Shown here in pieces: positions 5,613 to 27,712 of a stretch of 33,335 nt of DNA. A program made the translations under genes and the position numbers. Position 1 is the first letter of the stretch. Each line of letters starts with the position of its first letter. The stretch is taken from positions 1-33,335 of the forward strand of contig CAMETB010000001.1 in the NCBI GenBank assembly GCA_945936265.1, read 5' to 3'. Under the pieces are notes generated by a model. The model was not told the origin of the DNA. It saw only the letters and a list, made by a program, of their open reading frames with translations, and did not search any database. This stretch comes from an uncultured Clostridia bacterium. GTDB lineage: Bacteria; Bacillota; Clostridia; Oscillospirales; CAG-272.

Positions 5613-6164
5613 TTAATTGAATTTCATATTTTCTATTATGGAATTTACCGTGCCAAGATTTTTTGAGAAAAGACTGTTTTCATCGTCGATCTCGCCCATC
5701 GAAGTATAGGTTATTACGTATATACTACCGTTTCTTACGGTTGCAACCACCAAGAAGGTATACTTTACCCCACCTTTGAGCGTTCCATAATAAATATATT
5801 TGCTTGCCGCCTTGCCGTCAACTACCGTTTTTTCTCCTTCAGTTACTACAGTCATCTCAGCAAATATATTATTCATTTGTTCTTTGTAATCTTCCCACCA
5901 TGCGTCGATTGACGATATTTCGTCCGTGAGATTCCACTGTGCCACGCTGACGCTTGAACAGTCTGTTTTCGACACTTGTACACTCGTTGCTCCGTTCCTT
6001 GTGACAATCATCCATTCTTCAGGGACGAAAAGCGAATAGTCCACTACGCTCGTATCCGAGGCAAGCTTCATACCCTTCGGCACGTCATCTTTATCTGAAC
6101 ACGATGTAAATGCACACACAATAAGAACTATTGATAATGTTGACAAAATTCTTCTTACTTTCAT
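5613..6164 (-). CDS. Lipoprotein of unknown function
   Basis: The signal peptide and lipobox read MKVRRILSTLSIVLIVCAFTS|CSDKDD. I recognise no catalytic motifs. Its start overlaps the stop of the upstream M42 gene by 4 nt (ATGA). Confidence 0.65.
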   Translation of the reverse strand: MKVRRILSTLSIVLIVCAFTSCSDKDDVPKGMKLASDTSVVDYSLFVPEEWMIVTRNGATSVQVSKTDCSSVSVAQWNLTDEISSIDAWWEDYKEQMNNIFAEMTVVTEGEKTVVDGKAASKYIYYGTLKGGVKYTFLVVATVRNGSIYVITYTSMGEIDDENSLFSKNLGTVNSIIENMKFN

Positions 6165-8190: not shown

Positions 8191-8202
8191 TTTTGCTCCT
8201 CC

Positions 8203-9231: not shown

Positions 9232-9248
9232 ATCTTATTACTCCTTTT

Positions 9249-10544: not shown

Positions 10545-10617
10545 ATCCGTCCTCTTTCTATATTATAAATAAAAAAGCTCTCAAATTCAATACCTTTGAA
10601 AAATATTCCGCTTTATT

Positions 10618-11579: not shown

Positions 11580-11634
11580 AAGAAACACCTCTCAAAAACT
11601 GATTTTACCTTTTTTTAAAAGGTCTGACGATATA

Positions 11635-11663
11635 ATTATATGATACACCGCTCTTTTTGACAA
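11635..11663 (-). promoter_or_regulatory. Sigma-A-type promoter upstream of ddl-murD
   Basis: The minus strand reads TTGTCA - 17 nt - TATAAT. Confidence 0.5.
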
Positions 11664-11730
11664 AAATAAGGCCGCCACAAACCAAAATTTGCATCAGCCT
11701 TGATATTGTATAGAGTATTTTTTAATAATG

Positions 11731-12981: not shown

Positions 12982-13587
12982 TTACTCTCTCTCCTCTGCG
13001 ATACCGTAGAGCATAAAGTCAAAAAGCTTCATCACGTTTTCCTCGTGTATCTTTACTCTTTTCCCAAGCTCGACACCCCTGTAAAGCGGGCTGCTGAAAT
13101 ATCCGTTAAACATAGTCTGCATAAGGCGGAAATACGAAAGGGCGTCGTCCTTCGTTATGCCTTTTCTTAAAACGAGCGTATCGACCGTCTTTTTATAAAT
13201 GCTTTCGTTGAGTTTGTTAAAACTATCGAGCGCTTCGCTTATTTCCTCTGACAGATGGCTTTGCGGCATAAGAAGCGCCTCAAAAAAGATATGCGCCTCG
13301 TTTGGAAACGCCTTAAAAAATTCCATACGGACGGACATATATTTTTCCAGGCTTTCCTCTCCGCCTCTTTTGCGGATATATTCCGTAAAAGTATCGCAAC
13401 TCTTTTTTAAGCAGAACAGGTAAAGACCGTCCTTGCCCGTAAAATTATGATAGATAAGTCCTTTGTTTATTCCCGACTTACATATATTATTTATCGTGCC
13501 GCCGATATAACCGTTTGTGCCGAACTCGTCCATTGCGACCCCGGTTATCTTTGAAACGGTGATTTTCGTTTTTTCGCTTTTCTTCAT
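12982..13587 (-). CDS. TetR/AcrR family transcriptional regulator
   Basis: The N-terminal HTH region reads ITGVAMDEFGTNGYIGGTINNICKSGINKGLIYHNFTGKDGLY. I prefer the start at MKKSEKTK (ATG 13587) because AAGGAG lies 7 nt upstream. The longer track ORF would run through the promoter. Confidence 0.8.
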   Translation of the reverse strand: MKKSEKTKITVSKITGVAMDEFGTNGYIGGTINNICKSGINKGLIYHNFTGKDGLYLFCLKKSCDTFTEYIRKRGGEESLEKYMSVRMEFFKAFPNEAHIFFEALLMPQSHLSEEISEALDSFNKLNESIYKKTVDTLVLRKGITKDDALSYFRLMQTMFNGYFSSPLYRGVELGKRVKIHEENVMKLFDFMLYGIAEERE

Positions 13588-13618
13588 ATTTTTCTCCTTT
13601 TTCGGACGTTCAGTCGGT

Positions 13619-13648
13619 ATTATAGCATAAATTGACCGTATAGTCAAT
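13619..13648 (-). promoter_or_regulatory. Promoter of the tetR-antiporter operon with an overlapping palindromic operator candidate
   Basis: The minus strand reads TTGACT - 17 nt - TATAAT. The perfect inverted repeat ATTGAC-N6-GTCAAT (13631-13648) covers the -35 box. Confidence 0.55.
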
Positions 13649-13708
13649 AATATATGCAAAAAACCGAAAAATGTTTTGGCTAAAAGTCAATGCGTTCATT
13701 TTTGCAAA

Positions 13709-13738
13709 TAAAAAAATGCCCCCTCGGGCATTTTTTAT
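13709..13738. terminator. Intrinsic terminator hairpin flanked by A- and T-runs
   Basis: AAAAAAATGCCC-CCTC-GGGCATTTTTTAT. The palindrome extends outward to TGCAAATAAAAAAA...TTTTTTATTTGCA. It sits immediately after the stop-equivalent of the guaA 3' remnant. Confidence 0.8.
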
Positions 13739-13835
13739 TTGCACTCGGTATGGGCGGTAGTGGCGTTACGTCATAGAGTATAAGAGATATTTTATCTCCG
13801 AAGTTATCAATCGCTCTCACCCGGAATGCATCTAT
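13735..13835 (-). pseudogene. Decayed remnant of the last ~30 codons of a GMP synthase (guaA) gene
   Basis: The minus strand reads ...AIDNFGDKISLILYDVT, then in a shifted frame ATTAHTECK*. Intact guaA ends ...IMDNFGDKISLVLYDVTGKPPATVEWE*. The distance from the core to the stop is 48 nt here and 52 nt in the intact gene, so the remnant is out of frame. Confidence 0.8.
13783..13808. repeat. Direct repeat copy 1 (26-nt exact match to 25887-25912)
   Basis: AGAGATATTTTATCTCCGAAGTTATC is identical at both positions and in the same orientation. Flanking similarity is partial, for example 13 of 17 matches on the stop-codon side. Confidence 0.9.
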
Positions 13836-13917
13836 AACTGCTTTTTATCCGCTGGCGGTTTTATTTGCGTTTAACAGCATGAAACGGATATACAAAACAT
13901 TTTGTTTTTAAGTTATT

Positions 13918-15024
13918 TCAAACTTCCTGAGACCCTGTTTCTTCATCCCTGACAGCGTCTAATGCTGCCCGGATAACCTTGTCCATATCAAGATACTCAT
14001 ATCGTCCCAGACGTCCGCCGAAAATAACATCGGGATGTAAAGCCGAAAGTTCCCGATACTTTGAATACAGCGCCATATTTTTTTTATCATTGACAGGATA
14101 GTAAGGATCCATACCCTTATGCCATTCTGCCGGATATTCACGACTTATAACTGTTGTTTTCTGCGTCCCGTATTCGAAATGTTTGTGTTCTATTATACGT
14201 GTATACGGTATGTCTGATGATGTATAATTCACCACGGCGTTCCCTTGATAATTTTCACAACATAAAATCTCTTCTTCAAAACGAACGCAACGGTACTCCA
14301 GCTCGCCATAACAGTAATCAAAATATTCATCTATCGGTCCGCTGTAAACCGTTTTAAGTGCATCAACCGATTTTTCAATCTGCTTATAATCGGTGTTCAG
14401 CAATACCTCGATACCATCCAGCAATTTATCGAAAATCACTGAATAACCGCCTATCGGAACGCCCTGATATATATCGTTGAAATAATTATTGTCATAGGTA
14501 AATCTTATCGGAATTCTGTCAATTATGAAGGCAGGGAGATCTTTGCATTTTCTGCCCCATTGTTTTTCGGTATATCCCTTGATTAGTTTCTCATATATAT
14601 CAGTTCCAACCAAGGATATCGCTTTCTCTTCCAGATTGTTGGGTGATGAAATTCCGGAATGCAGAATTTGTTCCGATATTATCTTTTTTGCCTCGGAAGG
14701 CGTTTTTATGCCCCACATTTTGCTGAATGTGTTCATATTGAAGGGCAGGTTGTAAATCTGACCCTTATATACGGCGAGCGGTGAATTGATAAAGTTGTTG
14801 AATTCTGCATATTTGTTTACATAATTCCATATCTCACTATCCGAAGTATGAAATATATGCGCGCCGTATTTATGAACATTTATGCCTTCCGTTTGCTCGG
14901 TATAGCAATTTCCTCCGATATGCGGACGTTTATCGATAACCAGACATTTTTTTCCTCTGTCCGTCATCTCTCTTGCAAATACGGCGCCGAATAATCCCGC
15001 TCCTACAACAAGATAATCGTACAT
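13918..15024 (-). CDS. glf: UDP-galactopyranose mutase
   Basis: It has the FAD-binding start MYDYLVVGAGLFGAVFA. Family-typical stretches include HIGGNCYT, HKYGAHIFHT, IIEHKHF, YYPVN and GRLGRYEYLDMD. Length is 368 aa. Confidence 0.9.
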   Translation of the reverse strand: MYDYLVVGAGLFGAVFAREMTDRGKKCLVIDKRPHIGGNCYTEQTEGINVHKYGAHIFHTSDSEIWNYVNKYAEFNNFINSPLAVYKGQIYNLPFNMNTFSKMWGIKTPSEAKKIISEQILHSGISSPNNLEEKAISLVGTDIYEKLIKGYTEKQWGRKCKDLPAFIIDRIPIRFTYDNNYFNDIYQGVPIGGYSVIFDKLLDGIEVLLNTDYKQIEKSVDALKTVYSGPIDEYFDYCYGELEYRCVRFEEEILCCENYQGNAVVNYTSSDIPYTRIIEHKHFEYGTQKTTVISREYPAEWHKGMDPYYPVNDKKNMALYSKYRELSALHPDVIFGGRLGRYEYLDMDKVIRAALDAVRDEETGSQEV

Positions 15025-15855
15025 TTATTTTCTCCTTAAACCCTTGACAATCTTTTTAGCTAAAAATCTTCTCTTGCTCTCAGGTGGGAAAAGTGCATCT
15101 GAAATTCTTTTTTTAGCCGAGCAGCAGATATCAAGCCGGGGAAGTTCTTTTATCAGGACTTTATTTTCGTAACAGTATGATATATATATTCCGGTAAATA
15201 TCTCCCCTAAATATCCGTCCGCTCTGTCAGACTGAAAATCTCCATGGGGCTTTTTCAGCAAATCAAATTCGTTCAATGCATTGAAAAGTATATCACAGTA
15301 CTCGTAAAAGTGAGCCTTATCCATAATAAACATATTACAAAAATATTGCCTTTGCTGTGATAAATACTTTTCAACAGTTTCAGAAAGATGCGGAGATTGC
15401 TTTTTAAGTATTTTTATGAACAAATTCAAATCATCGGCGTAATGATACTGGGAGCCGCAATAGTGTTCGCGAACCGTCAGGCCCATATTTTCACTACGCG
15501 GAGCTATAATTTCGTATCCGGAAATAAGTTTTTCCCATTGTTCCCCGGTGCCGAGAAGTCTTTCATCGGTCAATTGTGAAAATACAAGATACGGGCGCTT
15601 TATGCTGTCATCAATGCAAAAAAGCCTTCGGTAATGACAAAAGCCGTAATAATCGGCAGAAATGTTTTTCCAGGCATAGTAATGAGCTGTAAGTTCGCAA
15701 TATTCACGATTTTTTATCGATATATTTTCGCCATCATTATCGTGAATTACGCCGGCAATACACGGGTTCAAAGCCGCCCCGCATTGTATTGGATTAAATA
15801 AAGGCGGAATTATGCTGTACGAATTATGGCAACATAAGAACAAAGCGTTTTTCAT
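15025..15855 (-). CDS. DUF4422-type glycosyltransferase (probable galactofuranosyltransferase)
   Basis: Motifs PIQCGAAL, DNDGENISIKNREYCELTAHYYAWKN and YYGFCHYRRLF match my recollection of the DUF4422 family. It lies directly adjacent to glf. The start is uncertain. I prefer ATG 15855 (MKNALFL) over the track's TTG at 15882. Confidence 0.7.
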   Translation of the reverse strand: MKNALFLCCHNSYSIIPPLFNPIQCGAALNPCIAGVIHDNDGENISIKNREYCELTAHYYAWKNISADYYGFCHYRRLFCIDDSIKRPYLVFSQLTDERLLGTGEQWEKLISGYEIIAPRSENMGLTVREHYCGSQYHYADDLNLFIKILKKQSPHLSETVEKYLSQQRQYFCNMFIMDKAHFYEYCDILFNALNEFDLLKKPHGDFQSDRADGYLGEIFTGIYISYCYENKVLIKELPRLDICCSAKKRISDALFPPESKRRFLAKKIVKGLRRK

Positions 15856-15976
15856 AAGCGAAAATTTCTCCGTACCGGACAATATGCTTAATAAGTTACA
15901 TACTGTATGGTTTAATTACACAAATCAGGACTCCGAACACAAAATCAACGGGTCAAAAAATATCATTTTAACTGTT

Positions 15977-17071
15977 TTATTGAACTTTAATCCAACTTAT
16001 AAGCTTTCTATATGCCTGTTCCAATCCTACTTGAGGCTTCCACCCGAGAGAACAAAGCTTGGTATTATCCAAAAACAGTTTTGTGTTCGGAGCGTATCCG
16101 TATTTCATTGAATCCGAAGGAATGTCAATAACAACTTTTATTTTATCCTCCGCAATATTATGAGCAACCATCCGAGCCATTTCTATTATAGTTGTATGGC
16201 TTGCCGGATTGCATATATTGTATGCTTCTTTGTACTTGCCTTTTTTCAACAATATAAGAATTGCTCTTATTGCATCAGATGTATATACATAGTTACCCTC
16301 TGACAATCCATTTGTGTGAAGGACTATATCGTTTCCGTCGATAACGCTCCTTGCGAATTGAGCAAACACCCTGTTTTCTGTCGGGAGAATCCCCGCACCG
16401 AAGGTCTGTGCAAGCCTTGCCGTTGTTACATTGACTCCGTATTGCGCCGAATAGGCGTTGCACAAGCACTCACATGCGCGCTTGCTTTCCGGATAACAAC
16501 TTCTGACGGAGGAAAGATCAATATAGCCAAGCGACTTTTCATCTGTCATCTCATTTTTTTCGATGTTTCCGTATACCTCCATCGAAGAAAGATATACCAT
16601 TGACGCGTTATTATCACGGGCAATTTTGAGCAATGAATCGGTACTGTTGAACGCCGAAACAAGAACAGATACCGGGAATGTTACCATTTCCTTTGAGTTT
16701 GTTATGGCTGCCGTATGGATTATAAAGTCGACTTTATCCGAAAATTCAAAATTTCCGCTCCCTAAATCTTCCGTTACCACAAAAGAAAGCGCCGTATTGT
16801 CTGATTCCTGTGAAAAAACAGACTTTGCTTTTTCTATATTTCTGACAACAGCATAAATCTTAATTTTCAGATCGTATTTTCTGTTGTAGTAAAGCAGCGT
16901 TTTGACCATGAGCGATCCTATAAGCCCTGTGCTACCCGTTATGAGAAACGAAGAACCGTAAAAATCTTTCAATCTCAATCCGTCAGATTCAACAGACTCA
17001 AAATCCTCTTCCAGAATTTTATCTTGCAAAGACAAATCAATAGCCATTGATTTGAGAATCCTCCCTTGCAT
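15977..17071 (-). CDS. Extended SDR (NAD-dependent epimerase/dehydratase/reductase family)
   Basis: It has ITGSTGLIGS (GxxGxxG), SSMEVYG and YPESKRACE (YxxxK). The start is ambiguous (TTG 17074, ATG 17071 or ATG 17047). Every option overlaps the stop of the upstream cytidylyltransferase gene. Confidence 0.75.
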   Translation of the reverse strand: MQGRILKSMAIDLSLQDKILEEDFESVESDGLRLKDFYGSSFLITGSTGLIGSLMVKTLLYYNRKYDLKIKIYAVVRNIEKAKSVFSQESDNTALSFVVTEDLGSGNFEFSDKVDFIIHTAAITNSKEMVTFPVSVLVSAFNSTDSLLKIARDNNASMVYLSSMEVYGNIEKNEMTDEKSLGYIDLSSVRSCYPESKRACECLCNAYSAQYGVNVTTARLAQTFGAGILPTENRVFAQFARSVIDGNDIVLHTNGLSEGNYVYTSDAIRAILILLKKGKYKEAYNICNPASHTTIIEMARMVAHNIAEDKIKVVIDIPSDSMKYGYAPNTKLFLDNTKLCSLGWKPQVGLEQAYRKLISWIKVQ

Positions 17072-17765
17072 CAAGAATCGCTCTCATAATATAAAAATCT
17101 TCCGGCGTGGTTATTTTAATGTTATCCTTCGGGCCTTCCGTCAGGTGAAGTTCTTTGCCGTAAAATTTCATCATTGAACAGGAATCGATAAAATCGTTCA
17201 ACCCGGATTTCAAAGACTGACGATGCGCTTCAAGAATATCTTTAAGCCAGAAACTCTGCGGGGCGCGTGCGAGTTTACAATCTTTGCGTGGAGGCACTGA
17301 TAATATTCTGCCGTCTTCGTCTGCCATCAGAACCGTTTCCTGTGCCTTAACACAAGTGATGCAACTCCCGTATTTAAGCACACAATCAATGTTGTCATCA
17401 ATAGTCTGAGAGGTAATGAGAGGTCTTACTCCATCATGGATAAGAACGATGCATTTATCTTTGTCCTCCCCTGCAATCTCCTCCGCCGCACATAAGCCGA
17501 AGTAGATCGACTGCTGACCGGAAGTGCCGCCCTTCTTTATCATCTTAACTTTCCTTATGTTGTACTTGTCAAGCAACATGTTCAGATGATCAATCCATCC
17601 GTCAACGCATACTACAACTATTGCATCTATGCGTGGGTTGTTCTCAAACACTTTCAATGTGTGGATTATTATCGGTTCTCCGTGTACTTCCAAAAACTGT
17701 TTAGGTCTTTCCTTGCTGTTCATTCTGGCACCTACACCGCCTGCAAATATAACCGCTATATTCAT
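17037..17765 (-). CDS. IspD/TarI-family cytidylyltransferase (CDP-alditol or related CDP-activated donor synthesis)
   Basis: The N-terminus MNIAVIFAGGVGARMNSKERPKQFLEVHGEPII is the AGGxGxRM...KQF signature of IspD/TarI enzymes. Length is 242 aa. Confidence 0.8.
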   Translation of the reverse strand: MNIAVIFAGGVGARMNSKERPKQFLEVHGEPIIIHTLKVFENNPRIDAIVVVCVDGWIDHLNMLLDKYNIRKVKMIKKGGTSGQQSIYFGLCAAEEIAGEDKDKCIVLIHDGVRPLITSQTIDDNIDCVLKYGSCITCVKAQETVLMADEDGRILSVPPRKDCKLARAPQSFWLKDILEAHRQSLKSGLNDFIDSCSMMKFYGKELHLTEGPKDNIKITTPEDFYIMRAILDAREDSQINGY

Positions 17766-17775
17766 CTTTTTCTCC

Positions 17776-20247
17776 CTATTTCTTCATCTTCAAACGACGT
17801 TTGATTTCCTGTGTTATTCTCTCTGAATTATCCGGTCCGTTGGCTGTCTCATCAAAGAAATACTTCAATACTTCTTTTCGCCACCCGGCGTCCTTCTGAG
17901 GATCTTCAAGATATTTTCCCACTTCTTCCATTGTTTCTTCCCAGGTGTAAGTTTTAGGACCGGGAGTTGCTTCCATATAATCGAGATTCATATCGGTATC
18001 ATTTTTACAAAATGTTTCATAGTCATAGCAAAAGAACACTGCTGCTTTGTCAAATAATAAGAAATCGTATGCTATGGAAGAGTAATCGGAAATTATTACT
18101 GCGTAATCGTTTATTCTCGGATAAATATCCTTTTCATCATCAAATTTTATTCTGTCATATTTTTTTATAACCGGTTTGATTAATTTCGAATAATTGCGCC
18201 ATGTGTTCGGATGAAGACGAAGGACAAATACCGAATCGTATTTTTCCATGGTTTCCTGAATCATACTGACACTGTCAAGAAAATTTTTAACAAGCGACTT
18301 CTCGTCTTCCTCTTTCATACGATAAGTCGGCGCATATATCACATAATTTTTTGAAGGTGAACTCAATGAATTATATACAGGCAAATTTCTCGGATGACCT
18401 GCCATGAAATAACTTGACTCCGGTATGTTCCATCTCTTTCCGAACATATCTATCCGTTCCTGACCGGGACAAACAAACAGAAAATATTTCTCGAACAATT
18501 CTCTGAAATAAGCATGCCTGAAATACTTGATTTTCTTTATAAATCTCGTGCCTGCGGAATCTCCCGGCTGTGCAATTATGTCGGTGCTGTACATTACCCC
18601 GGCAACATCGGTATTTTTAACTTCCTTGCCATTGCCCATAGATTTAAGACCGACGCCATGCCAGAGTTGGACTATCTTCGTTCTGTCACTTAATCCGTGC
18701 AGCGGATTATAATCCGTCATTTTGAAATGGTCGGTAACAGCCACAGAACAACGAGCCATCCTCCATGCCCCCGCAATCGTATTGTTCATAGAGACAGGGT
18801 AACCGTTTGCCTTCAGTTTCTTATAGAGTTCTTTGCTTTTTGTAAACCAAATGGCCTTTATTTCCGGGTGGTTTTTCACTACATATTCATAGTAATACTT
18901 TGCATTGTCGAAAAATTTGTTTCCTGCGTAAAACGAAGTAAATGCCCATCTCTTTTTGCTCTTCGGTATGAGACAATTCAGCCAGTATGCAATGAATTTG
19001 GAAAAATTATAAACTTTCCTTGAAAACTTGCACTTTTTCAGTCTGGAAATAAATTTCTTTATTTTCGCTTTTGTCAATGACAATCTGGTATATAACTTTA
19101 CTATAGGCTTGAAAAGATGCATAAATTTCGAGTTTCTTGCGACAATTTTATTACCTTCCCAGCCATAAATTCTTGTCATCCTTCTGCTGTCGTTATAAAA
19201 TGACAAATATGCGTTTAAGGAAATTACGCCGGCATCCGGGAAAGTTATGAAAAAATCCGCAATTTCTTTTTTCATATTGTTCTTGACCAGCACCTGCAGA
19301 TACAAACTTGCCTCGTATTTAATGCGATTCTCTATCTGAACAACGCCGTATCCGCCATACCATCTGATGAAAAACTGTCGTAATCCCGTCAACATTATCA
19401 GATACTGCGGTCTCGTATACAAAAAGTTCTCGTCCATGCTCTTGTATGTTGTAAGAGAGTTGTCGTTTTTTCTGTATACAGCCATTACTTTGTCTTCCAG
19501 GTACACCATGCCCCGACGTCCCATATGCAAAAGGAACATCGGCAAATCGCCTATATACTTGTTTCTGTAAAACCAATCGGGAAGAGGGTTAAGATCTTGA
19601 TTTACACGCAGCATTACAGCGAGTGGCGTAGGATTTCCCCCACACTCCATAAATGTCTTTACATCATAATAATTGTTTTTTGATTTTTTAAATTCCGGAA
19701 TACACTCCGGCATATAAATGTTTCCATCTTTTGCTCTCTTATAATACGTTTCAAGAAAATGATTTTTCGGCAGCGTCATCAGAACATTGCAGAAACATCC
19801 CCCTAAATCGGGATGCGCAGCCAAGTAATCATATTGATATTGGAGTTTGTTTTCGTCGGTCCAGTAATCATCCCCGTCACAAAATGCGACAAAAGGTGAC
19901 GCAGCAACTGCCCTCTCGCAAAGGTCTCCGAAATTTCTCATACTTCCTACATTTTTACGTCTTAAAACAGGTACTATCAACCCCGGATATCTTTTTGCAT
20001 ATTGTCTTACAATATCTGTCGTTCCGTCAGTACTGCAGTCGTCACCGACAAGTATCTGAAACCTGAAATTAGTCTTCTGGCATACAAGGCTGTCAAGGCA
20101 CTCTTTTATATATTCCTTCTGATTATAAGTAACGGTTACAATTGAAACCATTATCGGATTGACTTTTTTACGAACCGTTGTCTTTTTTTTCTTTGTTAAT
20201 TTCTTTTTGTTGCTTTTCTTATTTGTTTTTGACATATCCAATACCAA
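17776..20247 (-). CDS. Bifunctional GT2 glycosyltransferase / TagF-like CDP-alditol phosphotransferase
   Basis: The N-terminal GT2 domain reads VSIVTVTYNQKEYIKECLDSL...LVGDDCSTDGTTDI...CDGDDYW. The C-terminal Glyphos_transf-type motifs are IVQLWHGVGLK, VIYAPTYR, VLRLHPN and ISDYSSIAYDFLLFDKAAVFFCYDYE. The start is uncertain (TTG 20247, ATG 20235 or ATG 20151). Confidence 0.8.
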   Translation of the reverse strand: MVLDMSKTNKKSNKKKLTKKKKTTVRKKVNPIMVSIVTVTYNQKEYIKECLDSLVCQKTNFRFQILVGDDCSTDGTTDIVRQYAKRYPGLIVPVLRRKNVGSMRNFGDLCERAVAASPFVAFCDGDDYWTDENKLQYQYDYLAAHPDLGGCFCNVLMTLPKNHFLETYYKRAKDGNIYMPECIPEFKKSKNNYYDVKTFMECGGNPTPLAVMLRVNQDLNPLPDWFYRNKYIGDLPMFLLHMGRRGMVYLEDKVMAVYRKNDNSLTTYKSMDENFLYTRPQYLIMLTGLRQFFIRWYGGYGVVQIENRIKYEASLYLQVLVKNNMKKEIADFFITFPDAGVISLNAYLSFYNDSRRMTRIYGWEGNKIVARNSKFMHLFKPIVKLYTRLSLTKAKIKKFISRLKKCKFSRKVYNFSKFIAYWLNCLIPKSKKRWAFTSFYAGNKFFDNAKYYYEYVVKNHPEIKAIWFTKSKELYKKLKANGYPVSMNNTIAGAWRMARCSVAVTDHFKMTDYNPLHGLSDRTKIVQLWHGVGLKSMGNGKEVKNTDVAGVMYSTDIIAQPGDSAGTRFIKKIKYFRHAYFRELFEKYFLFVCPGQERIDMFGKRWNIPESSYFMAGHPRNLPVYNSLSSPSKNYVIYAPTYRMKEEDEKSLVKNFLDSVSMIQETMEKYDSVFVLRLHPNTWRNYSKLIKPVIKKYDRIKFDDEKDIYPRINDYAVIISDYSSIAYDFLLFDKAAVFFCYDYETFCKNDTDMNLDYMEATPGPKTYTWEETMEEVGKYLEDPQKDAGWRKEVLKYFFDETANGPDNSERITQEIKRRLKMKK

Positions 20248-20264
20248 TCTTCAATTTGTTTATT

Positions 20265-21542
20265 TTAAACTCTCCAGTCCAAAAGCGCTTCCACTTCGCT
20301 GCAATCAAAAACAGGAATGCCGCAGACACGGCTCACATCATAACGCTCGCTGAAAGCGTCATCGATAAATATTGCAGACTTTTGTACTATATATGATGAC
20401 TTAGGTTTATCGTTGTCAATAACGATAATATCACTGAAAAGTTCCTCGCTGATATGAAAATCCTTAAGGCTCGAATGGATATCTTTACTGTGCCGGCTTA
20501 AAAGCACGATGTTCTTACCCTGATTTTTCGCCTGATAAAGAAACATCATAAGAATTGTATTTACTTTATCTCCCAGATGAACCGTGTCATCAAAATCCAC
20601 ATAGACCCAGGAATATTCGATATCTGTTTTATAACGGCTTATAAATGCACGGTCGACCGTTATACTGTACTTATTGTCAATAACCGTTACGGGAACGCCT
20701 TCAAAACAAAATAAAGTCATCATCGGATAGTTAAGCCCGAGATTTCGGGTTATTCCCATTGTCCCCGCAATTCTGGGGGCAACCTCCATCAACCGATATT
20801 CTCCGGAATCATTTCTTTTCAGCTGGAAAAACCATGCACCTTTGAAATGAAGACGACTGTTGATAATTTTTGCAATTTGCTTTACCTTTTCATCTTCGGG
20901 CAAAATCTCGCTGCTTACGCTTATACCTGTCCTTATCCGTTTTCTGTTTCGCATTTTAAAGCACAATAAATTTCCGTCATTGTCTGTGAAACAGTCAACA
21001 GTATATTCTTCACCGCTGAGATACTCACATATTATTCTCCCGGGGTTTTCATTCAATGCATATTTAAGTTCCGCCGCGTCGTTCACTTTCAGAGCGCCCT
21101 GCGCACCTTGTCCGACATCCGGCTTTACAAACACGGGAAATTTCTTAACCTCACTCTCAGAGTATGTATCCGGCACAAAATCCTCGTCTTTGAAAAGCCT
21201 GTATGTTTTTGATTTTGAACGGCAGATCTCCGTTGTGTAAAGATCAGCGGAAACAATCACAGCGTTTATTTTATCTGCATTTTGCACAAGAAACAGTTGA
21301 ATATCATCGTACGCCGGATATATGTAATCTATTTCATACTCCTTAATCACTTCATTGAGTTTTTCAATAAAATCCGGAGAATCAAAATACGGCACCCCGG
21401 TAATGCAATTTGAAAAAACATATTCGCTGTGATTAGGCGTACTGGTCAACCCGTATACTTTGAAATGCTTGGAATATTTCAGTGCGTTATTTATTTCAAG
21501 TCCTATTTCGGAACCTGCGGGAAAAACAAGTACGTTTTTCAT
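20265..21542 (-). CDS. ATP-grasp ligase fused to a small HAD-like phosphatase domain
   Basis: Residues 1 to about 300 form the ATP-grasp domain (FPVFVKPDVGQGAQGALKV, ICEYLSGEEYTVDCF, LMEVAPRIAGTMG). The C-terminal ~110 aa carry HAD motifs: I VDFDDTV (DxDxT), II VLLSR, III DKPKS, IV FIDDAFSE. Confidence 0.7.
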   Translation of the reverse strand: MKNVLVFPAGSEIGLEINNALKYSKHFKVYGLTSTPNHSEYVFSNCITGVPYFDSPDFIEKLNEVIKEYEIDYIYPAYDDIQLFLVQNADKINAVIVSADLYTTEICRSKSKTYRLFKDEDFVPDTYSESEVKKFPVFVKPDVGQGAQGALKVNDAAELKYALNENPGRIICEYLSGEEYTVDCFTDNDGNLLCFKMRNRKRIRTGISVSSEILPEDEKVKQIAKIINSRLHFKGAWFFQLKRNDSGEYRLMEVAPRIAGTMGITRNLGLNYPMMTLFCFEGVPVTVIDNKYSITVDRAFISRYKTDIEYSWVYVDFDDTVHLGDKVNTILMMFLYQAKNQGKNIVLLSRHSKDIHSSLKDFHISEELFSDIIVIDNDKPKSSYIVQKSAIFIDDAFSERYDVSRVCGIPVFDCSEVEALLDWRV

Positions 21543-22513
21543 CGGTTTTTGCTCCTAATTTCAAATTTTATCTTTCTTATTTTCTCCGAAAGTTTTGTCA
21601 TAATCGCGACAAATACCGCAATCGGTGATATGGCAATGAATTTAATTTTTCCTACGCGGGATATTACTTGCTTTAAGCATTCTGAATTTGCAGGGCTCTT
21701 GCGGATAAGTGATTTTATCAATGCACTGCCGCATATTTTCAGTTTTCTTGTCCTGAAACAAATTTTTTTATTTTCAATATCCGACGCTAATTGTGATAAT
21801 TTTTCATTTATGTCGTAATCAACAACGGAATTTTCATTTTTATAAATTTTGTCTGTAACGCTCCCGTCGGAAAATTTACGATAGCAACCGAGTATTCTGC
21901 TCAATCGATAAAAATTTCCCTTCATCGAATACAACATTACAATGGTTCTGTCTGAAATCTGGGGATGTACCTCGTACATATTTCTAAGTTCCGGATACTC
22001 GCTGAAAATATTACGGTACATCATCGTACTTGTCTGACCCGGTAAAAATATCCCCTTAAAACTCTTGAATGTAAATTTCCGGTTATAAGATATCCACGGC
22101 AAAAAGCCATCACCCGAGAGCCTTCCGTCCTCTCCGATCAAAGTACAATCCCCGCAGCAGCCTATAAATCGAGGATGCGTTTCCATAAACTCAACCTGTG
22201 AGATAAGTTTATATTTATCACACCAATAATCGTCGCCTTCCAACGTTGCCACATACTTTCCGGAAGCTGCCGCAAGCAACAGATATAAATTTTTCGATGC
22301 ACCTATGTTCTTTTCCCTGACAAACAATTTTATTTTGTCGGGAAACCGCGACCTGAACTCTTCAAGTATGTCGGTTGTACCGTCGGTCGAGCAATCGTCG
22401 CCTATCAATATTTCATAATCAACATCACCCTGCTGAGACAGCACGCTGTTAACCGCTTCGGAAATATATTTTCGTTGGTTATGCGCGATAATCAATACAG
22501 ATACCAAACTCAT
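21539..22513 (-). CDS. GT2 family glycosyltransferase with a C-terminal hydrophobic segment
   Basis: Motifs are VSVLIIAHNQRKYISEAVNSVLSQ, LIGDDCSTDGTTDI and LEGDDYW. The C-terminus contains FIAISPIAVFVAIM. It is paralogous to the GT2 half of the 823 aa protein. Confidence 0.8.
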   Translation of the reverse strand: MSLVSVLIIAHNQRKYISEAVNSVLSQQGDVDYEILIGDDCSTDGTTDILEEFRSRFPDKIKLFVREKNIGASKNLYLLLAAASGKYVATLEGDDYWCDKYKLISQVEFMETHPRFIGCCGDCTLIGEDGRLSGDGFLPWISYNRKFTFKSFKGIFLPGQTSTMMYRNIFSEYPELRNMYEVHPQISDRTIVMLYSMKGNFYRLSRILGCYRKFSDGSVTDKIYKNENSVVDYDINEKLSQLASDIENKKICFRTRKLKICGSALIKSLIRKSPANSECLKQVISRVGKIKFIAISPIAVFVAIMTKLSEKIRKIKFEIRSKNR

Positions 22514-22514
22514 G

Positions 22515-23630
22515 TCAAGCCTTACAACACCGTAGAATCGTATCGCATATCCTGTCTATATCTTCGAAAGAAAGTTCGGCATAGAGCGGAAGCGTGAGAA
22601 CGTTCTCCGAGATTCTTTTTGCTACAGGTGTATCCGCCGGACTGCATTTTTCCCGAATCGCCGTAAAATCAGATGTTATGGGATAGAAATATTTCCTTGC
22701 AAAAATATTTTCGCTCTCGAGAGCCTTTGCTATATCGTCGCGGTTTTTCCCCAATATCTTTTCATCGAAAACAACAGGAAAATAAGAATAGTTGTAAACC
22801 GTGTTTTCTTTTTCTTTACAGAGAGTTATTCCGTCTATTCCGTCGAGGCGTTCGCGATATCTGCCGACGCATGCCTTCCTCTTATCGATGTATTCGTTTA
22901 TATGGCGCATATTACAAATTCCCATCGCGGCCTGAAATTCGTTCATTTTTGAGTTTGTACCAAGAACGCTTACATCATCCTCTCCGGAAAATCCGAACTG
23001 GCACAGAGCGTGAATCCTATCCTTGAGATTGCTGTCTTTAAACGCAAGGCAACCTCCCTCAATCGAATTGAACACTTTTGTAGCATGAAAACTGAACATT
23101 GTAATGTCTCCGAGAGAGGCTACACTTCTTCCGTCGACTTTTTCTCCGAACGCATGTGCACCGTCATATATCACTTTTAAATTATACTTGGATGCCAGCT
23201 GCTCTATCTTTTTATAATTGCAAATATTGCCGTAAACATGTACCGGCATAATGGCGCTAGTTTTTTCCGTAATAAGTGATTCGATTTTATCTGCGTCAAT
23301 GGTATAATCGTTCTCATCGATATCGCAAAATACAGGCGTAAGCCCTTTTCTCATAATCGCCAAAGTCGTGGACGCAAAGGTAAAAGGGGTCGTAATTACC
23401 TCTCCCGTAAGTTCAAGAGCATCAATTGCTATCTCAAGCGCCTGATGCCCGTTTGAAAACAAATGTATATTTGGTATATCCAGATATTTAACGAGTTGCC
23501 TTTCCAATTCCTGATGCTTCTCTCCGAAGTTGGTCAGCCAATGGCTGTCCCAGATTGATCGGATTTCCTTACAATATTCGTCAAAAGGAGGCATTGAAGA
23601 CATTGTAACCCGAATGACATCTTTACTCAT
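22515..23630 (-). CDS. DegT/DnrJ/EryC1/StrS family PLP-dependent sugar aminotransferase
   Basis: The PLP lysine motif is FSFHATKVFNSIEGG. Length is 371 aa. It lies directly downstream of rfbA-rfbB. An AAGGAAAG ribosome-binding site precedes ATG 23630. Confidence 0.85.
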   Translation of the reverse strand: MSKDVIRVTMSSMPPFDEYCKEIRSIWDSHWLTNFGEKHQELERQLVKYLDIPNIHLFSNGHQALEIAIDALELTGEVITTPFTFASTTLAIMRKGLTPVFCDIDENDYTIDADKIESLITEKTSAIMPVHVYGNICNYKKIEQLASKYNLKVIYDGAHAFGEKVDGRSVASLGDITMFSFHATKVFNSIEGGCLAFKDSNLKDRIHALCQFGFSGEDDVSVLGTNSKMNEFQAAMGICNMRHINEYIDKRKACVGRYRERLDGIDGITLCKEKENTVYNYSYFPVVFDEKILGKNRDDIAKALESENIFARKYFYPITSDFTAIREKCSPADTPVAKRISENVLTLPLYAELSFEDIDRICDTILRCCKA

Positions 23631-23659
23631 TTATTTCACTTTCCTTTTTATGTAGTATG

Positions 23660-24679
23660 TTATCTGTTCCCGTACATTTTTGCGTAATAGTCCTTATATT
23701 CGCCGTTGATGATATGTTCCCACCACTCACGGTTTTCAAGATACCACTGAATAGTCTTCTGAATCCCGTCTGCAAATTTTGTTTCCGGGAGCCATCCAAG
23801 CTCGTTGTGTATCTTTGTCGGGTCAATTGCGTATCGTCTGTCGTGTCCTTTGCGATCAGTTACATGTGTTATAAGGCTCTCGGGTTTATCAAGTGCCTTA
23901 CATATTATCCTGACGATATCGATGTTTCTCATCTCATTGTGCCCGCCGATATTATACACTTCTCCGACACGACCTTTATGAATTATCATATCAATCGCTC
24001 GACAGTGATCTTCGACATACAGCCAGTCCCGCACATTCAGTCCCTCTCCGTAAACCGGTAAAGGCTTATCATGCAACGCATTGGCTATCATTAACGGAAT
24101 GAGTTTTTCCGGAAACTGATACGGCCCGTAGTTATTTGAACAGCGAGAGATTGTTATCGGTAAACCGTACGTCCTGTAATATGCCTGCACAAGTAAATCA
24201 GCGCTTGCTTTGGATGCGGAATACGGTGAACTTGTGTGTAACGGAGTGGACTCAGTAAACAGCATATCCGGTCTGTCAAGGGGCAAATCCCCATACACTT
24301 CGTCCGTTGATACCTGATGAAAACGCTCTATGCCGTATTTCCGGCAGGCATCCATCATAACGGAAGTTCCCACTATATTGGTATTCAAAAATACGCCCGG
24401 ATTTTCAATTGAACGGTCAACATGACTTTCCGCGGCAAAGTTTATGACAACATCAGGATGCTCGTTTTCGAAAACGTTGAAAACAGCATCGCGATCGGTT
24501 ATATCAACTTTGTAAAACTTAAAATTCGGGTTGCGTGTCAGGGGTGCAATGGTTTCAAAATTCCCTGCATAAGTGAGACAATCAACACAGATTATCTTAT
24601 AATCCGGATGATTTTTCGCCATATAATGAACAAAATTTCCTCCGATAAATCCGGCTCCACCGGTCACTATGATCTTCAT
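23660..24679 (-). CDS. rfbB: dTDP-glucose 4,6-dehydratase
   Basis: Motifs are [23 protein letters not shown] and YSASKASAD, with a C-terminal WW...EY-rich tail typical of RmlB. Length is 339 aa. Confidence 0.9.
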
Positions 24680-25554
24680 TGACTATCCTCCGCCAACTTC
24701 ATAATATACTGTCCGTACTCGGTCATTTTCATCTCTTCTCCGAGTTTTTTCAACTGTTCCGTCGTTATAAATCCACGTCTCCATGCAATCTCCTCGATGC
24801 ATGAAATATAAAAGCCCTGCATATCCTGAACGCTCTGTACAAACTCAGCGGCTTTCAGCATTCTTTTCGGTGAGCCTGTATCAAGCCATGCCATTCCGCG
24901 CCCCATGAGAATTACATTAAGTTTTCCTTCCGACAAATACCGGTTGTTTATCGATGTTATTTCAATCTCACCGCGAGCAGAAGGCTCCACTTTTTTTGCC
25001 ATATCAACAACTTTGTTATCATAAAAATACAACCCCAGAACCGCATAATTCGATTTTGGTTCCGCAGGCTTTTCCTGTATGGAAATAACTTTGTTGTTCT
25101 TATCAAACTCTACAACGCCGAATTCACGCGGATTTGCAACCGGGTAACCGAAAACGGTTGCCCCTCCGTTTTCAACCTGTGCCATCGCAGTTCTCAGATA
25201 TGTACTGAGTCCTTGTCCGTAAAATACATTGTCTCCGAGAACAAGGCACACGCTGTCGTTCCCGATGAAATCTTCACCGAGAATAAATGCATCTGCAAGT
25301 CCGCGGGGCTTGTCCTGAACTTTATATTCGATATGTATTCCTATACGACTCCCGTCTCCCAACAGTTTTCTGTAATTCGGAGTATCGTCGGGAGTGGATA
25401 TTACGAGAATATCTTTTATTCCGGCAAGCAGCAGCACAGACAACGGATAATATATAAGCGGCTTATCATATATTGTCAATAACTGTTTTGAGACCGAAAT
25501 TGTGCTTGGATAAAGGCGGGTCCCTTTGCCCCCGGCAAGAATTATACCTTTCAC
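24676..25554 (-). CDS. rfbA: Glucose-1-phosphate thymidylyltransferase
   Basis: Motifs are [31 protein letters not shown] and [11 protein letters not shown] prefer the GTG start at 25554 (MKGIILAGG) with GAGAGG upstream over the track's GTG at 25572. Confidence 0.9.
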
Positions 25555-25684: not shown

Positions 25685-25713
25685 ATTATAACTTATTTAT
25701 TTCTTTATGTCAA
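25685..25713 (-). promoter_or_regulatory. Consensus sigma-A promoter of the glycopolymer operon
   Basis: The minus strand reads TTGACA - 17 nt - TATAAT, a perfect match to both hexamers. This gives a leader of about 120 nt before rfbA. Confidence 0.65.
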
Positions 25714-25834: not shown

Positions 25835-27712
25835 TCATTCCCACTCGACGGTGGCGGGAGGTTTACCCGTTACGTCGTAGAGGACGAGAGATATTTTATC
25901 TCCGAAGTTATCCATTATCTCTTTGGTTGCGGCTTTGAGTTCGTCTATCGGGAAATCGACGCCCGGCATTGCGCTGCGCGCGGTCATAAAGTCGCTTGTG
26001 CATACGGCTCTCATTGCTACAGAGAAACGTTTGCCCTCGTCGCAGGAGATGGGCAGCAAAACTGCGAAGCACTGAGCAGTCTTTTTGTTCATCAGGTGCT
26101 TTGTCACTATGGCGTCAAGTTCTCTTAAAAGTTCGGCGTTTTCGTGATTTATGTGCATAGGGGTGCAAAAAGTTGCTCCCTGCATTTCGTTCTTATTGGT
26201 ACAGTAGGTGACTCTGTTTATATAGTCAAGTTTATTCGGAATAAGTTTTGCAAGCGAATAAAGATTTTCAAAATCGCAGTCAAGAGCATCCTTGCCCTTT
26301 ACGTTGTTATAGAGTATAGCCATACTTCTGTACGAACGGTTATCGCCCTGAACGCCTACCGAACGGATAGGCGCTATATCGCTGTCGTACGGATAACCCG
26401 ACACAACCTCGTCAAGTTTGTTTATCTTGTCCGCATCGTTAAAAGTGCCTATATAGTCCGTACATATCATACGGACGCCAAGCCCGGGTCCGGGGAACGG
26501 CTGGCGGGACGCTATTTCCTCGTCAAGACCGAGCATCCTTGCAACTTGCCTTACCTCGTCCTTGTGCCAATCCCAGTTGGTTTCTATGACATGGCCTTTA
26601 TCCCTTAAAGTCCTTATTACTCCGACGTCGTTATGATGCGTTTTTATCTTGTTTGCATATCCGCTGACGTCGGGGTTGCCCGATTCTATAAGGTCGGGGC
26701 GCAAAGTTCCCTGGGCGAGAAATGCGGTATCGAAATCGAGATTGAGTTTTTTTGCCGCCTCCTCAGTGACAACGAAGAACATATGGCCTATTATCGCTCT
26801 TTTTTTCTCCGGCTCACAGGTTTGACAAAGCGGCTTATACTCCACTCCGTCAATTGTTAAGGGTGTGTTGAAAAACTCGTCCTCGGCGTTTATCCTTTGC
26901 ATATTTACAAGTCCGAGTTTTGCGAGATTTTCGCATATAAGATCGCTCTCGTTCTTTCTCATCATACCGTGGTCAATATGAATACCGTAAACCTGATCGG
27001 GACGGAGCGCCTTTGTAAGAAGTGCCGCGGTAACTGCCGAGTCAACGCCACCGGATACCAGAACGACGACTTTGCCGTTTTCGCCGACGCGCTCTCTTAT
27101 CATTCTTACCGACGTTTCTATTCTGTCCTCAAGGGCATATACCTCTTTCAGCGCGCAGACCTTGCGAAGAAAGTTTTCAAATATTTTCATTCCGTTTACC
27201 GTCGGCTCAACCTCGGGATGAAACTGAACGCCTGTTATCTTCTTTTCTCCATTCCATATTCCCGCAACGACGCCCTCGGTGGAAGCGACAACCCGGAAGC
27301 CGTCTGCAACCTTGGCAACCGCATCTCCGTGGGACATGAGAACGTATTCCTTGTCAGAGAGCCCGTCAAATACGGGGCAGGTATTGTCGATATCTATGAG
27401 TATCTGACCGTACTCCGTCTTTACCCCGGGTTTTACCACTCCTCCGAAGTACTCATTGATAAGTTGCATACCGTAACATATCCCGAGCATCGGCTTGCCG
27501 AGAGAAAATATCCTTTTATCGTATTTCGGCGCTCCGTCGCTCCACACGCTTGACGGACCTCCGCTGAGTATTATGGCGTTGTGATCCTTTATTTTATCGG
27601 GATCGACTCCGAGCGGAAATATATCCGTGTATACGCCGAGTTCCCTCACCTTGCGGTCTATAACCTTTGTGTACTGTCCGCCGCAATCAAGTATTGCAAC
27701 CTTTTCTGTCAT
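25835..27712 (-). CDS. guaA: Glutamine-hydrolysing GMP synthase, long (eukaryote-like) form
   Basis: The GATase domain has ILDCGGQYTKVIDRKVRELGV, GICYGMQ and QFHPEV. The ATP-PPase P-loop is VLVSGGVDSAV. Later motifs are AQGTLRPDLIES, IKTHHND and VGVQGDNRSY. The C-terminus is YDVTGKPPATVEWE. At 625 aa it is about 100 aa longer than the usual bacterial enzyme. Confidence 0.9.
   Translation of the reverse strand: MTEKVAILDCGGQYTKVIDRKVRELGVYTDIFPLGVDPDKIKDHNAIILSGGPSSVWSDGAPKYDKRIFSLGKPMLGICYGMQLINEYFGGVVKPGVKTEYGQILIDIDNTCPVFDGLSDKEYVLMSHGDAVAKVADGFRVVASTEGVVAGIWNGEKKITGVQFHPEVEPTVNGMKIFENFLRKVCALKEVYALEDRIETSVRMIRERVGENGKVVVLVSGGVDSAVTAALLTKALRPDQVYGIHIDHGMMRKNESDLICENLAKLGLVNMQRINAEDEFFNTPLTIDGVEYKPLCQTCEPEKKRAIIGHMFFVVTEEAAKKLNLDFDTAFLAQGTLRPDLIESGNPDVSGYANKIKTHHNDVGVIRTLRDKGHVIETNWDWHKDEVRQVARMLGLDEEIASRQPFPGPGLGVRMICTDYIGTFNDADKINKLDEVVSGYPYDSDIAPIRSVGVQGDNRSYRSMAILYNNVKGKDALDCDFENLYSLAKLIPNKLDYINRVTYCTNKNEMQGATFCTPMHINHENAELLRELDAIVTKHLMNKKTAQCFAVLLPISCDEGKRFSVAMRAVCTSDFMTARSAMPGVDFPIDELKAATKEIMDNFGDKISLVLYDVTGKPPATVEWE
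25887..25912. repeat. Direct repeat copy 2 (26-nt exact match to 13783-13808), inside the guaA 3' end
   Basis: The same 26-mer, AGAGATATTTTATCTCCGAAGTTATC, encodes DNFGDKIS of the intact guaA. Confidence 0.9.

Follow-up and report, generated by a model that had tools for sequence, protein, structure and literature searches.

A ten-gene operon in the guaA 3' end of an uncultured Clostridia bacterium as a probable cassette for a teichoic-acid-like wall glycopolymer

Introduction

The 33,335-nucleotide contig CAMETB010000001.1 of an uncultured Clostridia bacterium, the whole of which is referred to here as the window, carries ten glycan-synthesis genes on its minus strand. Taken together, these genes probably constitute an accessory cassette for a teichoic-acid-like wall glycopolymer in a small-genome Clostridia-type bacterium. 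The most interesting element of the cassette is the family of a protein in which an ATP-grasp ligase is fused to a HAD phosphatase-like domain (hereafter ATP-grasp/HAD). An earlier note, made from the sequence alone, had read the region as an operon for an unusual teichoic-acid-like polymer that lacks priming, export, and attachment genes. The analysis described below refines this reading by a probable hexitol formed through a CDP-ketose, an additional GT2 glycosyltransferase, and ABC-type export with named candidate genes.

Organization of the operon

Open reading frames were assigned to families by Pfam and NCBIfam profile scans, with the curated equivalog cut-offs of NCBIfam. The ten genes are co-directional and tightly packed, extending on the minus strand from 25554 (or 25572) to 13918, and every reading frame lies where it had been placed before. 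Several gene junctions are ATGA overlaps or gaps of 1–30 nt. The rfbA gene starts with GTG at 25554, with a GAGAGG ribosome-binding site upstream, and an alternative GTG start is found at 25572. The ten genes are predicted to form one operon behind a perfect sigma-70 promoter. In gene order, the features are as follows:

25685–25713, minus strand: operon promoter between guaA and rfbA, TTGACA, 17-nt spacer, TATAAT; the sole 12/12 sigma-70 consensus match in the region
24676–25554, minus strand: rfbA (RfbA), glucose-1-phosphate thymidylyltransferase (TIGR01207, 454 bits, cut-off 361; PF00483, 3e-73)
23660–24679, minus strand: rfbB (RfbB), dTDP-glucose 4,6-dehydratase, ATGA overlap with rfbA (TIGR01181, 498 bits, cut-off 365)
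22515–23630, minus strand: DesI-like DegT aminotransferase (PF01041, 4e-94; TIGR04427, 290 bits; PDB 2PO3, 1.2e-63)
21539–22513, minus strand: GT2 glycosyltransferase, 324 aa (PF00535, 6.5e-26)
20265–21542, minus strand: fusion of an ATP-grasp ligase (about aa 1–295) and a capless HAD phosphatase-like domain (about aa 310–425) (PF15632/PF02655)
17776–20247, minus strand: fusion of a GT2 domain (aa ~30–170; PF00535, 5e-21) and a TagF-like CDP-alditol phosphotransferase domain (aa ~420–815; PF04464, 1.8e-35), 823 aa
17037–17765, minus strand: IspD/TarI-family cytidylyltransferase (PF01128, 4e-42)
15977–17074, minus strand: extended short-chain dehydrogenase/reductase (SDR) (PF01370; PDB 8V4G/8V4H, 9e-41)
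15025–15882, minus strand: DUF4422 glycosyltransferase, 285 aa (PF14393, 2e-55)
13918–15024, minus strand: glf (Glf), UDP-galactopyranose mutase (TIGR00031, 422 bits, cut-off 304)

The family assignments of the earlier note hold in these scans. Nine of the ten genes were present in its list, while the separate GT2 gene (21539–22513) had been left out. Its statement that the island encodes no initiating phosphoglycosyltransferase (PGT), Wzx/Wzy, ABC exporter, or LCP protein also agrees with the scans, in which no PGT, Wzx/Wzy, ABC-2 exporter, LCP, or acetyltransferase family was found among the reading frames of the window.

The dTDP-amino-sugar branch

The dTDP branch of the pathway very probably ends in a 4-amino sugar. 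RfbA and RfbB are followed directly by the DegT aminotransferase, and the best solved relative of the latter is DesI (2PO3; 219 bits, 1.2e-63), a dTDP-4-keto-6-deoxyglucose 4-aminotransferase. The next match reaches 162 bits, the 3-aminotransferase QdtB 144, and WecE-type enzymes about 77. Among the NCBIfam models, DesI (TIGR04427) likewise ranks first, with 290 bits and under the equivalog cut-off of 650. RmlC (PF00908) and the FdtA-type 3,4-ketoisomerase (PF05523) have no match in the whole assembly, and nothing lies above the cut-off for RmlD (TIGR01214). The assembly is a metagenome-assembled genome of 1.40 Mb in 174 contigs, of which the window is one entire contig; it is estimated to be 87% complete with 2.9% contamination and has an overall guanine-plus-cytosine (GC) content of 0.43. 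PF00953 (MraY/TagO) has zero matches in it, though murF and ddl are present, and essential genes consequently fall into assembly gaps. Since MraY itself is missing from an 87%-complete assembly, all genome-wide absences are provisional.

The earlier note had deduced a dTDP-4-amino-4,6-dideoxyhexose from the lack of rfbC, rfbD, and a ketoisomerase beside the aminotransferase. This lack extends across the assembly and includes the 3,4-ketoisomerase, an enzyme whose presence elsewhere would speak against a 4-amino sugar. Because of the DesI-type affinity of the aminotransferase and the absence of RmlC, FdtA, and RmlD, the simplest product is dTDP-4-amino-4,6-dideoxy-D-glucose (viosamine), and this gluco configuration appears somewhat more probable than not. 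A branch leading to rhamnose or to a 3-amino sugar was considered and ruled out on the same grounds. In viosamine and anthrose pathways, RmlA, RmlB, and an aminotransferase of the DesI/VioA/AntC type are followed by the N-acyltransferase VioB or AntD. In the present operon, no reading frame belongs to an acetyltransferase family in Pfam or NCBIfam, and a CoA-dependent N-acetyltransferase of the VioB type was therefore not found.

The ATP-grasp/HAD fusion as predicted N-acylating enzyme

The ATP-grasp/HAD protein belongs to a large family, with 5,693 proteins at E<=0.001 among 8,000 candidates scored. Full-length members of about 425 aa are spread over Bacillota, Bacteroidota, Pseudomonadota, Spirochaetota, Chloroflexota, Acidobacteriota, Planctomycetota, and Gastranaerophilales. 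Both halves carry conserved residues. In an alignment of 35 diverse homologues, the lysines and acidic residues of the ATP-grasp part, as well as D316, D318, D319, K381, and D394 of the HAD motifs, are invariant or almost so, and HAD motif I (DxDxT) can be read as VDFDDTV. The AlphaFold2 model is a confident two-domain structure with a predicted local distance difference test score (pLDDT) of 94.7. When modelled by themselves, the C-terminal 126 residues (pLDDT 92.8) fold like capless HAD enzymes such as MDP-1, the KDN-9-P/KDO-8-P phosphatases, and BF1531. A fold search with the whole protein yields only ATP-grasp matches of a general kind (2PN1, L-amino-acid ligase, PylC, biotin carboxylase, PurK, and PurT) and does not tell substrates apart. 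The ligase half is similar to amide-forming and carboxylating ATP-grasp enzymes alike, with no close characterised relative among them.

The genomic context is more specific. A DegT homologue lies within 10 kb of the ATP-grasp/HAD gene in 66 of 80 related loci from many phyla, and it is often adjacent. When neighbouring genes were clustered, 58 of 72 loci contained the DegT family, with a median offset of -1.1 kb, which corresponds to the adjacent gene. The next most frequent family in the clustering is a GT2 like that encoded at 21539–22513, with a homologue in 26–36 of the 80 loci; this GT2 also ranks third by frequency among the neighbours of the ATP-grasp/HAD gene. In one locus (L107), a homologue with 65% identity follows a PglF-like dehydratase, a DegT aminotransferase, and a small PGT, the place in which the ATP-grasp domain stands in Neisseria PglB2. 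The family therefore also serves UDP-linked amino sugars. The complete bacillosamine-type set of this locus (6161–14127) comprises the PglF-like dehydratase, DegT, small PGT, ATP-grasp/HAD, a formyltransferase, a PIG-L deacetylase, and a GT4.

Two precedents are known for ligases of this kind. In a review, the ATP-grasp domain of Neisseria PglB2 is held responsible for the 4-glyceramido sugar GATDH. In Bacillus cereus, the Pat/Pyl system makes UDP-yelosamine, in which 2-oxoglutarate is ligated to UDP-4-amino-FucNAc. Literature searches on ATP-grasp enzymes combined with viosamine/Qui4N or with N-acylation of O-antigen amino sugars returned nothing on the ATP-grasp/HAD family itself. Given the linkage to DegT, the placement in L107 relative to PglB2, the Pyl and PglB2 precedents, and the lack of any other acyltransferase in the operon, the fusion is likely to be the N-acylating enzyme of the 4-amino sugar, the role for which it had previously been named as the only candidate.

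The nature of the acyl group is a more tentative matter. Because a phosphatase domain is fused to the ligase, a phosphorylated acid may serve as the acyl donor and be dephosphorylated afterwards, with 3-phosphoglycerate as the leading candidate; this proposal should be regarded as speculative. With similar reserve, the pair of DegT and ATP-grasp/HAD, in some cases with the GT2, might represent a widespread and biochemically uncharacterised pathway found from Bacillota to Bacteroidota and Pseudomonadota. In such a pathway, a 4-amino nucleotide sugar would be acylated via an acyl phosphate with a phosphorylated glycolytic or amino acid (3-phosphoglycerate, phosphoserine), and the same polypeptide would remove the phosphate to give N-glyceroyl or N-seryl sugars. 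In the present organism, these sugars would decorate a hexitol-phosphate wall teichoic acid, which, if true, is a type of polymer as yet undescribed in gut Clostridia.

The alditol branch and the TagF fusion

The genes for the IspD-like cytidylyltransferase (PF01128) and the extended SDR (PF01370) are adjacent, overlap or abut at 17037–17074, and lie directly downstream of the TagF fusion. The SDR probably starts slightly downstream of 17074, as its homologue in a close relative has 347 aa. In the PDB search, the SDR matches 8V4G/8V4H at 9e-41, far above the next match at 3e-25. These structures are those of Campylobacter jejuni HS5.17, which reduces CDP-6-D-fructose to CDP-6-D-glucitol (PMC10918830), and the identity to HS5.17 is about 35%. 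Equivalents of Met139/Glu140, Arg164, Tyr167/Lys171 (YxxxK), Gln196, Arg208, and Tyr295 are kept in the alignment, while Thr195, Asp212, and Arg233 are replaced. The cytidylyltransferase shares 42% identity (4e-58) with C. jejuni HS5.18, a fructose-6-phosphate cytidylyltransferase whose sequence was taken from the supplement of PMC10918830; TarI (4JIS) is matched at 2.9e-41. The value of 42% is comparable to the 45% identity published for HS5.18 and Mnp1. The HS5.18/HS5.17 pair makes CDP-glucitol, and Mnp1/Mnp2 make CDP-mannitol (PMC10918830).

Because the pair is closest to the C. jejuni enzymes that lead from CDP-6-fructose to CDP-glucitol, a hexitol is more probable than a pentitol as the alditol and would arise by reduction of a CDP-ketose. 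Most likely, cytidylyl transfer to a ketose phosphate would precede reduction, and the predicted product is CDP-glucitol or CDP-mannitol. The alditol phosphate postulated earlier from a cytidylyltransferase, an SDR, and a TagF-like domain thus gains a more specific form, in which the families are as named and the SDR is of the extended, nucleotide-sugar type, not the TarJ type. CDP-ribitol synthesis of the TarI/TarJ type was down-weighted, because the closest relative of the reductase, an extended SDR, is a CDP-ketose reductase.

The assembly encodes no second TagF-like domain. The one in the fusion matches Staphylococcus epidermidis TagF (3L7I) at 1.6e-14, and its QLWHGVG and LRLHPN segments align with both histidine motifs, WHG and (L/M)H, the histidines of which are the catalytic His444 and His584. 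The GT2-TagF fusion is consequently a candidate polymerase. In the C. difficile flagellin Type A system, TagF-like enzymes are able to use CDP-linked donors other than alditols. The genes of that system, CD0241–CD0244, were also considered as a model for the combination of ATP-grasp, HAD, and TagF, and the model was rejected, as CD0242 is a nucleotidyltransferase and not an ATP-grasp protein.

The galactofuranose branch

Glf is an equivalog-level match (TIGR00031, 422 bits against a cut-off of 304), and its gene abuts that of the DUF4422 protein (15025/15024). The latter matches the DUF4422 part of WbbM (6U4B, 1.7e-25), a GT111 galactofuranosyltransferase, and a GT111-type galactofuranosyltransferase is predicted here as well. 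The homology to WbbM and the abutting genes bear out the view that Glf and a DUF4422 transferase add galactofuranose. As a source of UDP-Gal, GalE is encoded on another contig, C53 (452 bits).

Priming, export, and attachment

The earlier note held that the cassette depends on machinery encoded elsewhere, and candidates for most of this machinery are present in the assembly. The 7.9-kb contig C63 carries, in one direction, genes for an ABC-2 permease (PF01061), an ABC ATPase (PF00005), a Bac_transf PGT, and a GT4. The PGT, the only one of the Bac_transf type in the assembly, has 455 aa and a CoA_binding_3 domain and is of the WbaP type. The only LCP protein (PF03816) is encoded on contig C131. 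Hence, the genome search that the note had proposed for tagGH and LCP genes yields an ABC-2 permease/ATPase pair and an LCP protein. For tagO, PF00953 is without a match, but MraY is missing too, and one Bac_transf PGT is present instead.

Related cassettes point to the route of export. Eight loci in Clostridia genomes, two of them truncated by contig ends, contain the core set of DegT, GT2, ATP-grasp/HAD, GT2-TagF, IspD-like enzyme, and SDR, and six of the eight also have RfbA/RfbB. Homologues of the C63 permease (29–41% identity) and ATPase (43–50%) lie within the cassette in six of the eight. One further comparison is provided by locus L106, whose ATP-grasp/HAD protein is 75% identical and in which the same order, from DegT, GT2, ATP-grasp/HAD, and GT2-TagF to IspD-like enzyme and SDR, continues immediately with the ABC pair and, further on, with a DUF4422 gene. 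No PGT or LCP gene was found in the related cassettes whose flanks were examined. As the related cassettes and L106 carry a homologous ABC pair inside, the best reading is an ABC-transporter-dependent, cytoplasmically polymerised glycopolymer, and the C63 pair has a fairly good chance of being its exporter.

The island at guaA and its variation

The operon lies in an island bounded by a direct repeat of the guaA 3' end:

13764–13811, minus strand: island boundary formed by a decayed copy of the guaA 3' end; 48-nt direct repeat with 90% identity to 25868–25915
25868–25915, minus strand: partner copy of the same 48-nt repeat within the 3' end of intact guaA (25835–27712), the other island boundary

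The distal repeat, just beyond glf, reads as a decayed guaA C-terminus, which is followed by an old terminator-like hairpin at about 13710–13736. The GC content is 0.37–0.42 inside the island and 0.43–0.47 outside. No integrase, relaxase, or other mobility gene is found in the 12-kb island, all ten reading frames of which are glycan-synthesis genes. A full-length GT2-TagF gene was not found in 30 related genomes (18 of the same genus and 12 of the same order). The distal end of the cassette also differs between relatives, with DUF4422 and Glf here and the ABC pair and other genes in L106. On the contig of the closest relative (L096, 5662–9036; ATP-grasp/HAD 83% identical), a 1,124-aa Glyco_transf_11 (GT11) protein replaces DUF4422 and Glf downstream of the SDR. 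An accessory, horizontally acquired cassette in the guaA 3' end is the best explanation. The insertion, the 30 genomes without the full-length gene, and the differing distal end fit the serotype or decoration cassette suggested before.

In a related cassette from a Candidatus Fimivivens metagenome-assembled genome (L043, 12365–14736), an NDP-hexose 2,3-dehydratase and a Gfo/Idh/MocA oxidoreductase are encoded between RfbB and DegT, which predicts a 2-deoxy version of the amino sugar.

The GuaA protein of the window is itself a long form of 625 aa (25835–27712). Nineteen of 20 same-genus genomes have no match to it at E<=1e-50, and one has a 40%-identical GuaA of 525 aa. The guaA gene that carries the island may thus be unusual or acquired.

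Proposed mechanism

In the proposed mechanism, one promoter would drive ten genes that provide three activated building blocks. RfbA, RfbB, and the DesI-like aminotransferase would form dTDP-4-amino-4,6-dideoxy-D-glucose, the amine of which would be N-acylated by the ATP-grasp/HAD protein. The ATP-grasp half is expected to convert a small carboxylic acid into an activated acyl phosphate and then to form the amide, and the capless phosphatase half may remove a phosphate carried by the acid, so that 3-phosphoglycerate, for example, would give a glyceroyl amide. Glf would produce UDP-galactofuranose from UDP-Gal supplied by GalE. The IspD-like enzyme would place CMP on a ketose phosphate, probably fructose-6-phosphate, and the extended SDR would reduce the CDP-ketose to CDP-glucitol or CDP-mannitol. 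A glycosyl-alditol-phosphate chain, the synthesis of which most likely begins on undecaprenyl phosphate with the sole WbaP-type transferase detected and the neighbouring GT4 (C63), would then be assembled in the cytoplasm by the GT2, the GT2-TagF fusion, and the GT111-type galactofuranosyltransferase. Export through the ABC-2 permease/ATPase pair and attachment to peptidoglycan by the single LCP enzyme would complete the process.

Alternative explanations

Several observations weigh against this model or parts of it. The DegT score of 290 bits is well under the DesI cut-off of 650 and does not settle the stereochemistry at C4. The three replaced HS5.17 residues (Asp212, Arg233, and Thr195) contact CDP, and a pentitol of the CDP-arabinitol type is a less probable alternative. 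The phosphorylated-acid proposal is drawn solely from the domain fusion and the fold class. It is also conceivable, albeit unlikely, that the ATP-grasp/HAD protein does not acylate the sugar at all. The free 4-amino group would then make the polymer zwitterionic, and the enzyme would act otherwise, by attaching an amino acid at another position, carboxylating an amine, or dephosphorylating an intermediate. Carboxylating enzymes of the biotin carboxylase/PurK type are matched as strongly as amide ligases in the fold search, and 14 of the 80 loci have no DegT gene within 10 kb, both of which leave room for such a role. Against it stand the strong and often immediate linkage to DegT across phyla, the gene of L107 directly after the small PGT as in the domain order of PglB2, the Pyl and PglB2 precedents, and an operon with no other acyl- or acetyltransferase. 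N-acylation is consequently preferred.

The remaining doubts concern the fate of the chain, for which a Wzy-type route and protein glycosylation are minority alternatives. The assembly lacks mraY, and a TagO-type primer or other machinery may sit in its gaps, while a CpsB/CpsC/CpsD and Wzy_C module (C13), a second Wzy_C protein (C73), and a flippase-like Polysacc_synt gene (C127) are present. The C13 block (9879–13613) is compact and consists of a CpsB phosphatase, a Wzz-domain protein, a CpsD-like P-loop protein, and Wzy_C, with no glycosyltransferases or PGT alongside. With these parts, a capsule or exopolysaccharide could be made, in which a repeat unit built on a lipid carrier is flipped by the C127 protein and polymerised by the C13 Wzy_C, the C63 transporter serving another polymer. 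The capsule of Streptococcus pneumoniae 35A does contain mannitol phosphate made by Mnp1/Mnp2, as cited in PMC10918830. This route is nevertheless improbable, given the ABC-2 pair inside the cassette in six of eight related loci and in the identically ordered L106. No Wzx/Wzy gene is found in the cassette flanks examined, and only L107, with its different, bacillosamine-type gene set, has Wzx. In addition, the C127 protein is encoded at the end of its contig among housekeeping genes and resembles a SpoVB/MurJ-type flippase, and a GT2-TagF fusion suits processive cytoplasmic polymerisation. ABC export is also combined with a ligase-like transferase in S-layer glycan pathways (e.g., in Geobacillus), which suggests that the glycan could be placed by an O-antigen-ligase-like oligosaccharyltransferase on a surface protein (S-layer, flagellin, or the BspA-like protein of the window) instead of the wall. 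The two Wzy_C/O-antigen-ligase-family proteins of the genome and the large BspA-type leucine-rich-repeat protein (89–3403) are in keeping with this idea. It is the least probable of the alternatives, as the genome encodes an LCP ligase, alditol-phosphate chemistry of the TagF type typically belongs to wall polymers and capsules, and the Wzy_C genes are unlinked to the cassette in any locus seen. A wall-anchored polymer exported by an ABC transporter thus accounts best for the data.

Other features of the window and the genome

On one side, the island is flanked by GuaA, GlmS, an ECF S-component, DUF6062, OGG, and a PfkB kinase. The other flank encodes a TetR regulator, a Na/H exchanger, Ddl, MurF, three M42 peptidases, a cysteine-desulfurase-like protein, a FabG-like SDR, and a BspA-type leucine-rich-repeat protein. 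Homologues of genes of this genome are found chiefly in uncultured Oscillospiraceae and other Clostridia. The ddl gene is split (10618–11588), with the Dala_Dala_lig_N part at 11337–11588 and the C-terminal part at 10618–11349 in different frames; this essential gene thus carries a frameshift or was misassembled. The three M42 (TET/FrvX-type) aminopeptidases are tandem paralogues (6161–9231). The large BspA-type surface protein also has a Big_3 domain, and its reading frame (2–3403) runs off the contig start. Elsewhere in the genome, contig C10 (14501–16354) encodes a CapD/PglF-like membrane dehydratase of 617 aa (Polysacc_synt_2, 409 bits), an orphan with no aminotransferase or PGT adjoining.

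Significance

The wall glycopolymers of uncultured gut Clostridia are chemically almost uncharted, and they form the surfaces met by host immunity and phages. The cassette gives a testable prediction of composition, namely N-acyl-viosamine, galactofuranose, and hexitol phosphate. It also suggests a route to polymer variation, in which a compact donor-and-polymerase island resides in guaA, the primer, exporter, and ligase genes lie elsewhere, and the decorating end is swapped between close relatives. The ATP-grasp/HAD family has thousands of homologues in many phyla, mostly near a sugar aminotransferase, and its reaction is still to be assigned; a single assay in vitro could be enough to annotate the whole family.

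Comparison with known systems

Individual parts of the system can be compared with characterised ones. Like elements that integrate at the guaA 3' end, the island has a direct repeat of the guaA end at both borders and leaves the reading frame intact, but it has no integrase, relaxase, or mobility gene. The DUF4422 protein shares its domain with WbbM of Klebsiella O2a (1.7e-25) and is encoded beside glf; unlike WbbM, it is a stand-alone protein of 285 aa with no GT8 fusion. In common with dTDP-viosamine and anthrose-type pathways, RmlA and RmlB are followed by a DesI-like 4-aminotransferase, and RmlC, RmlD, and a ketoisomerase are missing. In contrast to these pathways, the place of the CoA-dependent acetyl- or acyltransferase is taken by the ATP-grasp/HAD fusion. 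N-acylation by Pyl and PglB2 resembles the present case in the pairing of an aminotransferase with an ATP-grasp protein in a glycan locus, and the gene order of L107 mirrors the domains of PglB2. The likeness drawn here is one of gene context; a fused capless HAD domain, as in the present family, is mentioned neither in the title of the Pyl paper nor in the PglB2 review, and the nucleotide is dTDP here and UDP there.

The CDP-hexitol pathways of C. jejuni HS:5 (HS5.18/HS5.17) and S. pneumoniae 35A (Mnp1/Mnp2) share the adjacent PF01128 cytidylyltransferase and PF01370 extended SDR (PMC10918830). The resemblance to the C. jejuni pair extends to 42% identity with HS5.18 and to HS5.17 as the solved structure nearest to the SDR, which retains most of the active-site residues. 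However, the SDR identity is only about 35%, three nucleotide-contact residues differ, and the product here may be glucitol, mannitol, or a pentitol. Further differences are the host, a gut bacterium of the Gram-positive type, and the TagF-like domain that the donor would feed.

The closest overall parallel is the wall teichoic acid pathway of Bacillus and Staphylococcus, represented by TagO/TagA priming, TarI/J or TagD donors, TagF/TarL polymerases, TagGH export, and LCP ligation. The present system differs from it in that no TagO-family gene was found and the sole primer enzyme seen is a WbaP-type Bac_transf protein. In addition, the polyol donor would arise through a predicted CDP-ketose reductase instead of TarJ, the candidate polymerase is fused to a GT2 domain, and the genes are spread over at least three contigs. 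The chain should also hold an acylated 4-amino-4,6-dideoxyhexose and galactofuranose. Common to the two systems are a polyol donor activated with CDP and a TagF-like phosphotransferase in which both histidine motifs are kept. The genome also holds ABC-2 exporter genes and an LCP ligase, and the logic of assembly in the cytoplasm is shared. The overall logic of the cassette is that of known wall polymers.

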